13,180 nucleotides of DNA from the IMG/VR virus record IMGVR_UViG_2703719368_000028; one strand, written 5' to 3'. The stretch's first letter is position 1; each line of letters starts with the position of its first letter. The DNA is from a virus (taxonomy: Duplodnaviria; Heunggongvirae; Uroviricota; Caudoviricetes). The position numbers are program-made. Positions 3,001 to 9,000 of the stretch are shown here, piece after piece.

Positions 3001-6000
3001 GGAAAAGCTGGTAGAAGAAGCTGACACCTCACCAACCGTATAACAGCCCCACCGACATTAAAATATCAGGAGAAAAAAATGAACGCAGTGCTCACAGAAT
3101 TGAACAAATTAGGAAAAGCATCAGCCGAAAGTATTTCTAAAGGTCTCAATATTGATTTGAATGACGTTATTGACACTCTATGGAAGTTAAAAAACCAGGG
3201 GGTAGTAACTGTAAAAAATGGCATCTGGCAGGCAGTTGCAAGGGAAGTGGACAAAAAACCAAATATCGCCTCAGTGCAGCCAGTGCAGCACAACATTATA
3301 GGTGACCTGCTACGTAAATCACGGAAAGAAGCGCGTCGCGCCGGGCGGAAACAGAAACGATGGGAGGGTGCATGTAAGGCGCTGCAAGAACTGAATAAAT
3401 ACCGTGACTTGATCAACGAATTGTCAGAGTGAGCGAATCACAGAGAGAATATTTTGAGAAACAACCCGCGTACATTAATATTGTTTTTCCTTTCTCTAAT
3501 GAAGGGCGGTATCCTGTTATTCGCAGGAACAACATTATTTATTTTTGTTGCCCGGATAACTGCGAGGATAATGACATGAAAATCACATTTGAAAGTTACG
3601 GTTTAACAGCAAGTGTGGTTATCTCCAGCTCTATATTCGAAAGCCGCAAACATCAGCATATCGTTGATGCAGTGAAACTCAAAGCCCCGGAAGTTACCGT
3701 CACAACACATGGACTTTTCAGGATACGAACGACGTTGACTACAACACACCTCTCGGCATGCCGTGTTTATGATATGGCACTCAAGGAATACAACCAGTGT
3801 TCGTCCTGATCCAGCGCGGGCAGTCTTTCGTTGATGCCAACAACTATCCGGTAGAAATATGCAAGGTAACTCTGACTCAGGTGATCTACCGAAGGCTCGA
3901 CGGCAGAACCAGAGCCACTTCAATTGGTGCATTTAATGAAGAATTTGAGCGAATAGAGCACAACGAACTGCATATGATTAAAGCGGAAATTGAGAAGGAA
4001 AAGCATATTGCCAGCCTTCGAAAAATGCGCCGTACATCAATCAACTAACAACCGCCTTCGGGCGGTTTATTATGCTGTTGAAAAACATGTAGAAAAGGAG
4101 AGCATACTATGGAAATCAACTTAATGACCGAAAAAGAAGTTTCTGAGTTGTTACAAAAAAGGCGCACAGCTTTGTATAATTTGCGAAAAAAACACGGATT
4201 CCCTGATCCAGTACTTACTCATCCGGCGCGATATAGCCGTCAGGCCGTTGAACAATGGCTTAAAGCCGGAGGAATTAACCGAGCTGTTTAGCGTGCCAGA
4301 AAATTTTATCAGCATACAACTCATACGCATCTTTCTGTTCCGACAACCAGTCGTGTTTATTATACACGGCCATCACTCCTCCCAGTTCATGCCCCAGCAT
4401 TTTTTCAGTGACGTGGGGCATAATTCCTTCCCCAGATAAATTCGTTACCAGAGAACGCCTAAAATCATGCGTTCTCCATTCAGGAATATCAATTTTCGCC
4501 CTGAGTTTTTTCATGTACAAATTAGCAGACGAACGGTCAATAGGTTTATCTATTTCCTGCCCAGGGAACAGCACATCAAATCCGATATTAAGCAATCGCT
4601 CAATATAAGGCTCAACCTGAGTAAATATCGGACGTCGGATAATATTACCCATCTTTGAATGCTCTTTAGGGGTTGTCCAGACCAGATCTTCCATGTTGAA
4701 CTCACTGGCTGTAGCGAGACGTAGCTCAGAAAGCCTGGCCCCCCATAGCAATAGCAATTGATGTAACAGCTTGTTGGAAGTAACCACTTTTGAGTTCTCC
4801 AGTGCCAGCCAGATCTTTGCCAGTTCCGTATAGGTAAGTACGCGACTCCCCACATCTGGTTTCTTCCCAATATTCTTTACACTGAGTTTGAGTAATTCGC
4901 ATGATGGGATTAACTGGCGGCTGATACACCAGTTAATAACTGAACGCAGTTGTAACAACAGAACACGAGCCTTTTTCTTGTTGAGGCTTTCTTGTTTGTC
5001 AAAAAAGCGAGCCCAGGCCGATACAGGGATACCGGCAACTGGCGAGTCTTCAAACTGTGTGTACATGGTGTTGTACACAACAGATCTATAAAGCGTCTGA
5101 GTATTGGGTTTCAGGCCGCTAACATACTTATCCCACCACTGATCCAAGCATTCTTTTAATGTCAATTCGCCATCACTGGGGGCAAAATAATTTTTAGGGT
5201 TAACTCCCTTCATGTACAATGCGCGCATCTCACCGACGATAACACGTGCGTCCTTCAGTGAAGTGGACGGATAGCGCCCGACAGTAAGACGTACTGGCTT
5301 ACCATTCCAGCGATAACGGTACTGAAACGTGATAGTTCCTGCTGGAGTAATCCGCACACTTAACCCGTCACCATCGGTGATTTCAGCAGGGCCAGAGTAG
5401 GGTTTTCCGTATAGGCCTCGTAGTTTGGTGTCACTCAGTGCCAATGCTTTATATCCTGTACACAAGTTTATAATGTATTCTGTACTCAATATGTACGCAT
5501 TAGCAAGTGAACAAAACACTTTTCAACGCAAAAGAAGATAATCAACCATGAACAAAAACGAACTTACACCTTGATTTTAAAACCATAAAGACGGTATTAT
5601 CAGTCATATGGTGAACAACCAAAATCAATACGCAACAACGTCCTCTTAGTTAAATGGATATAACGAGCCCCTCCTAAGGGCTAATTGCAGGTTCGATTCC
5701 TGCAGGGGACACCATTTATCAGTTCGCCTCCATCCGTACCAGTCCGCAAAATCCCCTGAATATCAAGCCTTCCGTAGATTCACAGTTCGTCATGGTTCGC
5801 GTCAGATCGTTGACAGCCGCACGCCATGACGGGTAAAAAGTGGATAAAATAATTTTACCCACCGGATTTTTACCCATGCTCACCGTTAAGCAGATTGAAG
5901 CAGCAAAGCCGAAAGAAAAACCATACCGCCTACTCGATGGTAATGGCCTGTACCTTTATGTCCCTGTATCAGGGAAAAAGGTATGGCAGCTTCGCTACAA

Positions 6001-9000
6001 GATTGACGGTAAGGAGAAAATCCTGACCGTCGGAAAATATCCGCTTATGACTTTGCAAGAGGCAAGGGATAAAGCATGGACTGCGAGGAAAGACATCTCG
6101 GTTGGCATCGATCCGGTAAAGGCGAAAAAGGCTTCGTCTAACAACAATTCCTTTAGTGCGATTTACAAGGAATGGTACGAGCATAAGAGGCAAGTCTGGT
6201 CAGCCGCCTATGCGACTGAACTTGCAAAAATGTTTGATGACGACATTTTACCTATCATCGGCGGCCTTGAAATTCAGGATATTGAGCCGATGCAACTGCT
6301 GGAAGTAATCCGCAGATTTGAAGATCGCGGGGCAATGGAGCGAGCCAACAAAGCACGCAGAAGATGCGGCGAGGTTTTCCGTTACGCTATTGTCACCGGA
6401 AGGGCTAAATATAACCCGGCACCTGACCTTGCTGAAGCCATGAAGGGATACCGCAAGAAGAACTTCCCGTTTTTACCTGCCGACCAGATCCCGGCATTCA
6501 ACAAAGCACTTGCAACATTTTCAGGAAGTATCGTATCTCTCATTGCGACCAAAGTTTTACGCTACACAGCACTAAGAACGAAAGAGCTTCGTTCCATGCA
6601 ATGGAAGAACGTCGATTTTGAAAACAGGATTATCACCATCGAGGCCAGTGTGATGAAGGGACGCAAGATTCATGTGGTTCCGATGTCGGACCAGGTTGTT
6701 GAACTTCTCACTACGCTAAGCTCCATCACTAAACCAGTATCAGAGTTTGTTTTTGCCGGGCGCAACGATAAGAAGAAGTCAATCTGTGAGAACGCTGTAC
6801 TGCTTGTGATCAAACAAATCGGCTATGAAGGTCTGGAAAGCGGTCACGGATTCAGGCATGAATTCAGCACGATTATGAACGAGCACGAATGGCCTGCTGA
6901 CGCTATTGAAGTGCAACTAGCACATGCCAACGGCGGATCTGTGCGTGGGATTTACAACCATGCTCAGTATCTCGATAAGCGCAGAGAAATGATGCAGTGG
7001 TGGGCGGACTGGCTTGATGGGAAGGTGGAGTAGTTATTACAACGATTCTTATAAAAAAGAAAAGCCTTGCACATATATCAAAGCTTTTCACTTCTCAGGA
7101 TTTCTTACACCAAGAAACCATCAACAATAACAAAATGCAATTATTATATGTTAACTACATATGCATTTCATTAAAACCAATCATAAATGCTTATCATACT
7201 TTAATTGCTATAATTGATTGCCTTCTATTTTTTCAACTCGAGTGGTTGAAACATCATTCTTAAATCCACTCCACCATTTTCTTAGCTTATTGTTTATTGG
7301 CTTTTCAAAAAACAAATACATCATTATTGATATAAATAATGAAGCAAACAGAGCCATTACTATAAATTTAATTACACTTATAGCACCAAGACCAGAAACA
7401 TTAAAGAACTTGCTCAATGTACTGATTACTATAGTATGGACCAAGTAAAATGAAAAAGAAGCATCACCTAAAAGTATCATAACTTTATTTGATATTATTT
7501 TTGAAATAATACCACCATTAAACGAAAACACTAATATTGAAAAGGCCATTGATGGTATAAAAAGCGCATCATACTGTAATCCATTGCTATTTTGACTTTT
7601 TGCCACCATATAGACAGACATTAGGATAAAGACTACAGATGATATTTCAGCAAATGATAGAACTAAATATGACGGCTTTGACTTAAACTCAAAATCTCCG
7701 GCCTGATTGCTGCGGATTGTCTCTGCCAGCCTGCCTCGGTCAATCTCACGACCAGCCATCTTGTCCTGAACATTGAAGTAGTCAATCGGACCGAGAGCAG
7801 CCATCCCAAGGTGATAAACAAACTCACCAAACCCTGAAGGATTCTGCTGATACATCTGAGCAACGTTGTTAGGGTCAACACCGACGCGCGCCAGTTCCTT
7901 GGCGTTGTTTTGCAGCCATGATTGCATTGCTTCTGGAGACGAGGCCGCAAGGCGTGCGCCAGCCGCTAAGGTGCCGATAGAATTGCGCTGGTCTTCGTCT
8001 GCCCACTTCATACCAGACTGAATCTTCTCTAATTGACCAGGATATTTGGTCATCAGATCTCGAACCTGCTGTCGATCGCCGGACTGGATGGCTGCCGCAT
8101 ATTCTTTTTGGAATGCAGCATCCGCTTCCTGTTGCTTTGCGGCTTGAGATGTTTGAGCGACACTACCAAGTCCCTGCAACGCCTGAAGGCCGATGTTATT
8201 GCGACCTGAACGCTCCATTTCGTTGTTCTGGCGAATATAGGCCAACGCCTCACTTACATCACTTGCCTTTGGCGCATTTGAGTTTTGCCCACCGATACCA
8301 GCAAGAAAACCGCCTGAGTTGATTCCTTGTTGCCAAGTAGCCATATTCCCACCTTAAAACAATGATCCAAGACCACCGATAACACCGCCAGCAAGAGCAC
8401 CAATACCAGTCCCAATAACAGGAACTGCACTACCAATCATTGCACCTGATGCGGCCCCACCAATGGCACCTGTAGCAAAACTCTGTAGGCCTGAAGGCTT
8501 ATTCGCATTTGCTGCCGATGCTGCCGCCTGCTGTTGATACAATTGGCTGACATTGTTAGCGTAGTTCTGTCCGGCGTTTGCCTGACCTGTAAGAGCACCA
8601 AGGCCGATATTTGCCAGATTGTTGTAGTTGTTCATCTGACCTGACAGCCAGTTTTGACCGAGTGTAGGTGCGATTGCTGCTAACTGGTTTCCTGTTGCTG
8701 TAGAGCCTAATCCACCCGTTGCCTCTGCTGCTGCCAGACTCTGATAGCGCGCCTGCCCTGCAAGGTCTTTATACTGCTGAGAGTTGTAATACTGGTTAAG
8801 CGCCTGACCTTGCCCCTGAAGAGAGGAAAGATTCTGCAACTGTGATACGTACTGCTGAGCGAGTGGCGTGAACGGTGCAAGGTTTTGCATGTTCGTCTGC
8901 CACATTTCACGCTGCAGTTCGATGCCCTTTTCAGTTGCGCGTGCCTGGGCTTTAGATCCGGAGTCGCTGCCGCCTTTCATATACCCATTCATGGGAAGCA

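Follow-up and report, generated by a model that had tools for sequence, protein, structure and literature searches.

Known integration systems at argW

Among the described systems, phage Φ24B (vB_EcoP_24B) compares most directly with the locus analysed here. Φ24B has a 24 bp central crossover site and a minimal phage attachment site (attP) of 350–427 bp, does not need integration host factor (IHF), and recombines with a minimal bacterial site (attB) of 62–93 bp consisting of a 49 bp B arm, the core and a 20 bp B′ arm (PMC7581858). Its int gene is inverted relative to that of lambda and begins with a TTG codon; transcription from a promoter of its own starts at a site mapped by 5′-RACE (rapid amplification of cDNA ends) 46 bp downstream of the codon earlier taken as the start. 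A small helix–turn–helix (HTH) protein of the phage was shown by experiment to be the excisionase Xis, which excision needs (PMC3064807). The primary integration site in K-12 laboratory strains is placed ~250 bp upstream of intS in the account given by PMC5247750, citing Fogg 2007. The Φ24B-group papers that we searched, RNA-seq and genome papers among them, made no mention of a tRNA or of argW, so they do not identify the 24 bp site with the 5′ end of that gene. In the present study we analysed a 13180 bp stretch of Caudoviricetes DNA (IMG/VR record IMGVR_UViG_2703719368_000028; hereafter the window), in which argW, a tRNA-Arg(CCU) gene, lies between a Φ24B-type integrase gene on its left and the integrase gene intS on its right.

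The argW gene is a standard insertion site of Stx2a phages, and its occupancy is typed by PCR with primers in the phage integrase gene (intW) and in intS (PMC8309913). The Stx2a prophage of O157:H7 clade 8 strains such as TW14359 shows the same order of yfdC, prophage, intW, argW and intS as the present locus; it differs in carrying stx2a, and the same paper treats argW as occupied or intact, not in terms of which end of the tRNA gene is used. According to PMC2951348 and to the available passages of bioRxiv 10.1101/2020.11.02.365908, which summarise Williams 2002, integration in tRNA genes classically uses one of three sublocations (anticodon loop, T-loop or 3′ end); in each the identity block reaches the 3′ end of the gene and the element lies downstream. 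The KplE1/CPS-53 element of K-12, with its IntS/TorI system, belongs here, with its 16 nt core at the argW 3′ end and the tRNA gene followed by a co-oriented integrase gene (PMC2951348). A different arrangement is described for Klebsiella, where, in those passages of the bioRxiv study, integrases target "the 5′ end of arg2" at a site made up of the acceptor 5′ half together with D-stem and D-loop, the islands are placed upstream of that gene, and two strains have an island at each end.

Two integrative elements at opposite ends of argW

Our reading of the locus, to which we give a probability of roughly 0.85, is that two independent integrative elements sit at opposite ends of argW, a Φ24B-type prophage at the 5′ end and a KplE1/CPS-53-type remnant at the 3′ end. 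The whole window was 100% identical with the chromosome of E. coli ERL05-1306 (NZ_CP032803.1; diced lamb, New Zealand), a strain whose nearest relatives are O157:H7 genomes. The left element, which the earlier note on this DNA, made from the sequence alone, had followed to the window edge, continues ~54 kb beyond that edge and ends beside yfdC. It measures 59875 bp between two copies of a 24 bp core and fills the gap between yfdC and argW. Its early genes comprise exo, bet and gam, kil and cIII, then the repressor, cro/cII-type regulators, O, P, the nin region and Q, and its late genes comprise those for lysis, terminase, portal, a short-tail morphogenesis module and a very large tail-associated protein. 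The left element is a complete short-tailed lambdoid prophage of the Stx-phage type without stx. Unlike in Φ24B, neither stx genes nor the phage tRNA genes ileZ, argN and argO were found between Q and nanS-p (436–1637 of locus extract L002), and the distance from Q to nanS-p was only 766 bp. The closest matches to this region were stx-negative phages of the same type, relative to which a further ~450 bp is missing here.

The attachment sites were then compared. Exact copies of the 24-mer, GTCCTCTTAGTTAAATGGATATAA, were found at 23640–23663 and 36290–36313 of two locus extracts (L001 and L002 respectively) and at 3032–3055 of the extract holding the free-phage attP (L003). On the yfdC side the order is native yfdC–argW intergenic sequence with a promoter-like TTACCC-17-TATACT, then the 24-mer, and then phage DNA. 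The free-phage genome Lyz12581Vzw carries a contiguous attP consisting of the arm found at 5445–5639 of the window, the 24-mer and the arm seen at the yfdC junction, and the AU5Stx1 record annotates exactly the same 24 bp as attP. A four-way alignment of attB (K-12), attL, attR and attP gave a textbook hybrid pattern, in which attP and attB share the 24 bp core, attL and attR are hybrids, and the 5445–5639 arm is common to the free-phage attP and is not in the K-12 attB. In E. coli genomes without the left phage, the match to the window begins only at 5640. These relationships between attL, attR, attP and attB show that the left element has integrated into the 5′ end of argW itself. The mature argW sequence is intact and the same as in the K-12 empty site with which it was aligned.

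Reading the parts of the tRNA from its sequence, we assigned the core to argW nt 1–24, comprising the 5′ strand of the acceptor stem (GTCCTCT), nt 8–9 and the D-arm to one base short of its end (GTTA-AATGGATA-TAA). Since the shared block extends as far as the 5′ end of argW, the left element has a mirror-image geometry, lying upstream of the gene with a divergent int; the right IntS element has the classical one, with its core overlapping the tRNA 3′ end. The left element resembles the classical cases in that a tyrosine integrase uses an identity block in a tRNA gene and restores an intact mature tRNA sequence, and in that the D-arm gives flanking dyad symmetry as the anticodon and T arms do, and it differs from them in that its block (nt 1–24) ends at the 5′ end and not the 3′ end. 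A block reaching the 5′ end means that the element must replace the promoter and not the terminator side. The 5′/D-loop site, the upstream position and the occupancy of both ends are shared with the Klebsiella arg2 elements (integrase clade I.d), to judge by their description in the available passages; the genus and the cargo differ. The earlier note had supposed either a different attachment site for the left element or the far end of an element integrated elsewhere. The site is indeed different from the classical 3′ site of argW, and the end that adjoins the gene is the int-proximal end of a prophage integrated at argW nt 1–24. For the empty-site comparison and the direct repeats that the note had proposed to examine, the outcomes are those given above: matches of phage-free genomes from 5640 only, an aligned K-12 attB, and the 24-mer at both prophage ends, 59875 bp apart.

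On our reading, the Φ24B-type integrase recombined the 24 bp attP core with argW nt 1–24, with strand exchange probably in the D-loop between the inverted D-stem halves. Integration left the prophage upstream of argW with int pointing away from the tRNA gene, carried the native argW promoter, together with a 24 nt tRNA stub, 60 kb off to the yfdC junction, and set the phage P arm (5445–5639) in front of the rebuilt intact tRNA sequence. Xis, from the repressed early-left operon, would direct excision.

At the yfdC junction (L002 36194–36433, minus strand) the native argW promoter would now drive the 24 nt argW stub into phage DNA, in which a GC-rich hairpin, CATGCCCCGCACTTCCGTACGGGGCATG, lies ~110 nt further on, and a short chimeric transcript may arise.

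The integrases and the excisionase

Both integrases matched PF13356 (Arm-DNA-bind_3) and PF00589 (Phage_integrase) above the gathering scores, in a P4-type layout, and shared ~29% identity, mostly limited to the N-terminal domain; they are two different P4-type integrases, as the earlier note had proposed. The left integrase was identical with Φ24B Int at 388 of 389 residues (the differing residue being A214T), the int–xis–attP region showed 99.5% nucleotide identity to the Φ24B-type module, and the Φ24B record itself notes a "P4 integrase conserved domain". The same int module was carried by 114 phage records, nearly all of them Stx-converting phages. Residues Arg237, Lys264, His326, Arg329, His352 and Tyr361 were invariant in 18 homologues, down to 57% identity, and would correspond to the catalytic R..K..HxxR..H..Y residues. 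The left integrase is intact by its sequence.

The neighbouring small HTH gene, convergent with int, had been called AlpA-like in the earlier note. The convergence stands, with a 17 bp overlap at 4275–4291; the 60-residue product matched the Pfam model HTH_17 and not the AlpA model, and was identical at 59 of 60 residues with the annotated Φ24B excisionase. By this likeness, 4109–4291 is predicted to be xis, encoding the recombination directionality factor of the left prophage. The locus also shares with Φ24B the 24 bp core, the site ~250 bp upstream of intS, and an inverted int with its own promoter and a TTG start. Here the start is the TTG at 5444, and 5445–5519 is an in-frame upstream extension that is non-coding, leaving a gap of 195 bp (5445–5639) between int and the tRNA gene.

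Conservation of the int–tRNA arrangement

The earlier note had set the arrangement against the normal stacking of islands downstream of a tRNA gene. For this lineage it is not unusual: int, argW and intS occur in this order in 151 of 5426 complete E. coli genomes, and the published PCR typing is based on it (PMC8309913). Most E. coli genomes have argW and intS without the left integrase, and many others have argW with neither.

A protein search found integrase relatives at 62–97% identity throughout the Enterobacterales and Orbaceae, including a Klebsiella pneumoniae integrase with 85% identity to the left Int. Scanning one genome for each species gave 78 loci, ~30 of them with a full-length integrase at at least 62% identity. 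In 26 of those ~30 loci a tRNA-Arg(CCT) gene lay on the opposite strand, 174–197 bp upstream of the int start; the genera with this pair were Erwinia, Enterobacter, Pantoea, Phytobacter, Brenneria, Xenorhabdus, Providencia, Proteus, Morganella, Salmonella, Tatumella, Rosenbergiella and Rouxiella. In three exceptions the contig stops short of the place where the tRNA would be expected; in three others, from Gilliamella/Orbaceae (L031, L033 and L050; 62–64% identity), the 3 kb upstream contained no tRNA. Relatives further removed (Vibrio, Shewanella and others, at 57% identity or less) were without a nearby tRNA. An E. coli sister clade at ~57% identity adjoins sbcB, which is also known as a site of Stx phages; this clade has an HTH gene of its own and no tRNA close by (L036 2500–4173; 558 E. 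coli genomes). As the distant relatives are without a tRNA and the sister clade sits at sbcB, the specificity for the argW 5′ end appears to be limited to a clade at roughly 66% identity or more, and the position of the sister clade suggests that this integrase family has changed its target between the 5′ end of a tRNA gene and a protein-coding gene.

A candidate argW promoter in the phage arm

With the native promoter moved 60 kb away, the 195 bp phage arm must drive argW or the gene falls silent. The earlier note had rightly required the phage-side spacer to supply the tRNA promoter, and had placed that promoter and the int promoter together in a gap of ~120 bp (5520–5639). The gap is 195 bp long, and the probable int promoter lies outside 5520–5639.

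To look for conserved elements in the arm, we aligned the spacer of the window with those of 26 related loci (27 loci). Most spacer columns had diverged, with a mean of 0.64 bits across 5520–5639. One conserved block was found on the minus strand, with TTGCTA (5506–5501) and CAGAAT (5482–5477) separated by 18 nt. This block is probably the int promoter (pInt); it fits the published 5′-RACE start (PMC3064807) on the assumption that the old start codon corresponds to the GTG at 5519. Another minus-strand scan hit, at 5603–5574, was rejected as pInt, as its hexamers are not conserved among the 27 loci and 5477–5506 fits the 5′-RACE result better. Three direct TGTAC repeats (5457–5461, 5481–5485 and 5492–5496) overlap pInt and are conserved across genera, and GTGAAC occurs at 5507–5512 and 5611–5616, the downstream copy being partly conserved (~1.5 bits at 5614–5616). 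Both repeats may be arm-type Int sites, in which case int could be autoregulated, as has been shown for the IntS of KplE1.

On the plus strand, TTGATT (5571–5576) is followed after 18 nt by TATTAT (5595–5600), with a G at 5593, position −14; a promoter scan found the same motif. Across the 27 loci it reads TTGnnn-18-GnTAnnAT, with the TTG, the G at −14 and the T, A and final T of the second hexamer invariant at 2.0 bits. The TTG of the −35 hexamer, the T, A and final T of the −10 hexamer and the G at −14 of the extended −10 element are the most conserved positions of σ70 promoters. The 18 nt length of the spacer between the hexamers was kept in 27 of 27 loci with a variable sequence, the distance from the −10 end to tRNA position +1 was 39 nt in 25 of 27, and the motif was the best or tied-best plus-strand σ70 match in 20 of the 27 spacers. 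Because the motif is conserved while the rest of the spacer has diverged, these results suggest that the phage arm supplies a σ70-type argW promoter at 5571–5600. The P arm would thus carry two back-to-back promoters, pInt on the minus strand and the candidate argW promoter on the plus strand. The latter most likely transcribes argW with a ~32 nt leader that RNase P would later remove, so that the lysogen would keep the tRNA.

The main alternative is that TTG-N18-GnTAnnAT is no promoter but serves recombination, as a site where a protein binds or the DNA is bent (Xis, Int arm-type, Fis or IHF-like), argW in the lysogen being silent or poorly expressed with another arginine tRNA compensating. 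The motif does lie inside a functional P arm, in a phage whose minimal attP is large (350–427 bp; PMC7581858), the strict 39 nt distance to the core is also what intasome geometry would need, and single sites reach only 8–9 of 12 matches to the σ70 consensus. However, the conserved positions are exactly those of σ70 promoters while the 18 nt spacer is free to vary in sequence, and the motif is without the repeat structure usual for Xis or arm sites, the TGTAC and GTGAAC repeats lying elsewhere. We therefore regard this alternative as unlikely, and the promoter and recombination roles of the motif may also overlap. As to IHF, a reading of the TTGAT block as an IHF site was disfavoured, since IHF is dispensable (PMC7581858) and the reverse complement of the block, judged by eye, departs from WATCAANNNNTTR.

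Several points weigh against our reading of the locus and of its promoter. The case for the argW promoter is drawn from sequence conservation, and each copy of the motif is a moderate match to the σ70 consensus, with an 18 nt spacer. The conserved bases and the fixed spacing could serve the architecture of the intasome, through Xis, Int or a host bending protein. The E. coli AGG codon may also be read by the UCU-anticodon tRNA argU, and a silent argW might be tolerated. The D-loop is a probable position for the crossover inside the 24 bp core, and the description of the primary site (Fogg 2007) comes second-hand, through PMC5247750. Literature searches for "upstream of argW" and for a phage-provided tRNA promoter returned nothing relevant, and the passages found of bioRxiv 10.1101/2020.11.02.365908 do not discuss the origin of the tRNA promoter after integration.

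The right element and the independence of the two elements

The right element is, to judge from its genes and its core, a degraded P22-like prophage of the KplE1/CPS-53 type that used the classical 3′-end core. Its integrase was identical with K-12 IntS at 138 of 141 residues (98%) over the part compared, and intS lies directly downstream of argW. The 16 nt core, CTGCAGGGGACACCAT, occurs once in the locus, at 5700–5715, corresponding to argW nt 61–75 plus one base; no second copy was found at up to three mismatches in the 49 kb locus, which reaches ~25 kb downstream. KplE1 shares the integrase, the core at the argW 3′ end and the co-orientation of tRNA gene and integrase gene; unlike the present element, it is bounded by duplicated cores and is excisable (PMC2951348). 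The remnant, with its single core within ~25 kb and P22-like ejection-protein cargo, is probably no longer excisable and fixed in place. Its genes include those for injectosome/ejection proteins and a DUF2824 protein, and a truncated tail-needle knob gene.

The minimal Φ24B attB (from 49 bp upstream of argW to nt 44; PMC7581858) and the IntS core do not overlap, and thus either element can be present without the other. In agreement with independent integration, intS occurs without the left phage in most genomes, and both are absent from many. A functional coupling of the two elements, with one integrase or excisionase acting on the sites of the other and the head-to-head pair being a selected unit, might be suggested by the 151 genomes with both integrases around argW and by the P4 type of both enzymes. 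We consider it very improbable: the elements occur independently, the integrases share only ~29% identity, in one domain, the cores differ and lie apart (5640–5663 and 5700–5715), the IntS remnant is without a second core, and Φ24B, by the account in PMC5247750, integrates at the argW site in K-12 laboratory strains.

A reading of the left integrase as debris, or as marking the distal end of an element that was inserted at another locus and lies beside argW by accident, would agree with the usual downstream position of tRNA-targeting elements, with int next to the 3′ end as for IntS here, and is scarcely credible, having been rejected by the att analysis: the open reading frame (ORF) is full-length and 388/389 identical with a biochemically active integrase, exact 24 bp direct repeats bound a complete 59.9 kb prophage between yfdC and argW, an attP with the same core is present in free phage genomes, and the same geometry is found in 26 loci of other genera. 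A truncated left integrase with no att repeats, which the earlier note had named as the finding that would reduce the left element to debris, is contradicted by the same intact ORF and exact repeats.

Layout of the window

The features of the window are collected in Table 1. Head-to-head integrase genes, their coordinates and the 17 bp convergent overlap were all given correctly in the earlier note, as checked with ARAGORN, which found tRNA-Arg(CCT) as the sole tRNA gene of the window, and with RefSeq, which annotates on the identical record an HTH protein, a tyrosine recombinase and intS at the limits listed for xis, int and intS.

Table 1 Features of the 13180 bp window around argW and the evidence for each
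Feature	Position	Strand	Basis
Left-prophage early-left (exo–xis side) accessory genes: DUF551, ORF6N/P22 antirepressor-C protein, MT-A70 methylase, DUF1382, DUF1627, DUF4222	1–4108	+	RefSeq annotation of identical record; Pfam for 1404–2060
xis (left prophage), predicted	4109–4291	+	Pfam HTH_17; 59/60 identical with Φ24B excisionase
int (left prophage)	4275–5444	−	Φ24B-type P4-family tyrosine integrase, 389 aa, TTG start
P arm of prophage att site (phage DNA)	5445–5639	.	att alignment; match limits of phage-free genomes
Candidate pInt	5477–5506	−	Conserved block across 27 loci; fits published 5′-RACE
Candidate argW promoter	5571–5600	+	Promoter scan; conservation in 27 loci
Φ24B-type att core GTCCTCTTAGTTAAATGGATATAA	5640–5663	+	argW nt 1–24; exact repeat beside yfdC
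argW, tRNA-Arg(CCU)	5640–5714	+	ARAGORN; alignment to K-12 empty site
IntS-element 16 nt core CTGCAGGGGACACCAT (attL of right element)	5700–5715	+	Core sequence from PMC2951348
intS	5876–7033	+	RefSeq annotation; Pfam Arm-DNA-bind_3, Phage_int_M, Phage_integrase
P22-like phage remnant (right element)	7208–10024	−	RefSeq annotation; Pfam Inj_translocase for 7208–8344

A few further observations were made on the genes of the two elements. In the early region of the left prophage, RefSeq marks a partial transposase-domain pseudogene at 2152–2337 (−), overlapping the 5′ end of the MT-A70 methyltransferase gene. In the right remnant, the ORF at 7208–8344 (−), annotated as a phage DNA ejection protein, matched P22 Inj_translocase over residues 12–217 and then, below threshold, Acyl_transf_3 over residues 230–343; the GC content falls to 0.30–0.33 at 7000–7750, under the Acyl_transf_3 segment. 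This chimera looks like a deletion scar, in which a fragment of an O-antigen acetyltransferase gene near intS was fused to the ejection-protein gene. Further right, the 470-residue ORF at 11405–12817 (−), in a low-GC block (0.32–0.38) at 11000–13180, and the 215-residue ORF at 10088–10735, beside that block, gave no Pfam or PADLOC match; the P22-like remnant lies on one side of this unexplained cargo and the csc sucrose genes on the other.

Implications for phage integration and argW expression

The arrangement, the integrase, the 24 bp core and the 5′/D-loop sublocation have all been described already; the layout is textbook knowledge in O157:H7 genomics, and few Stx-phage integrases have been studied as well as that of Φ24B. 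The comparison joins three literatures, in that the Φ24B "24-bp crossover site upstream of intS" is argW nt 1–24 and is the 5′/D-loop sublocation called novel in Klebsiella. The link between the Φ24B, argW-typing and Klebsiella literatures seems not to have been drawn explicitly before; this is bookkeeping and not discovery. The sole addition of the present study is comparative evidence which suggests a conserved, element-borne argW promoter, a modest and testable refinement.

Mycobacteriophages with tRNA-dependent lysogeny reportedly do not rebuild the tRNA gene, and the phage is said to supply a whole tRNA gene. The likeness to the present case is that integration threatens the tRNA supply and the phage carries a compensating feature, as described in the portion consulted of PMC10865867; the difference is that here the tRNA coding sequence is rebuilt exactly and only the promoter appears to be supplied.

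More tentatively, and as a reading that we hold less likely than not, the Φ24B-type clade, which occurs across the Enterobacterales, may represent a fourth sublocation (5′ end/D-arm), which would oblige the element to bring a portable σ70 promoter for the host's only CCU-anticodon arginine tRNA. Phage P-arm DNA would then govern the expression of argW in all lysogens, those of Stx2a phages in clade 8 O157:H7 included, and this expression could respond to Int/Xis binding, tying the decoding of the rare AGG codon to the state of the prophage. If the promoter is functional, it would explain how a phage can integrate at the 'wrong' end of a tRNA gene and not silence that gene, and a short transferable tRNA promoter would be embedded in the attP arm. 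It would also matter for the Φ24B integrase as a genetic tool, since integration would rewire the transcription of argW.

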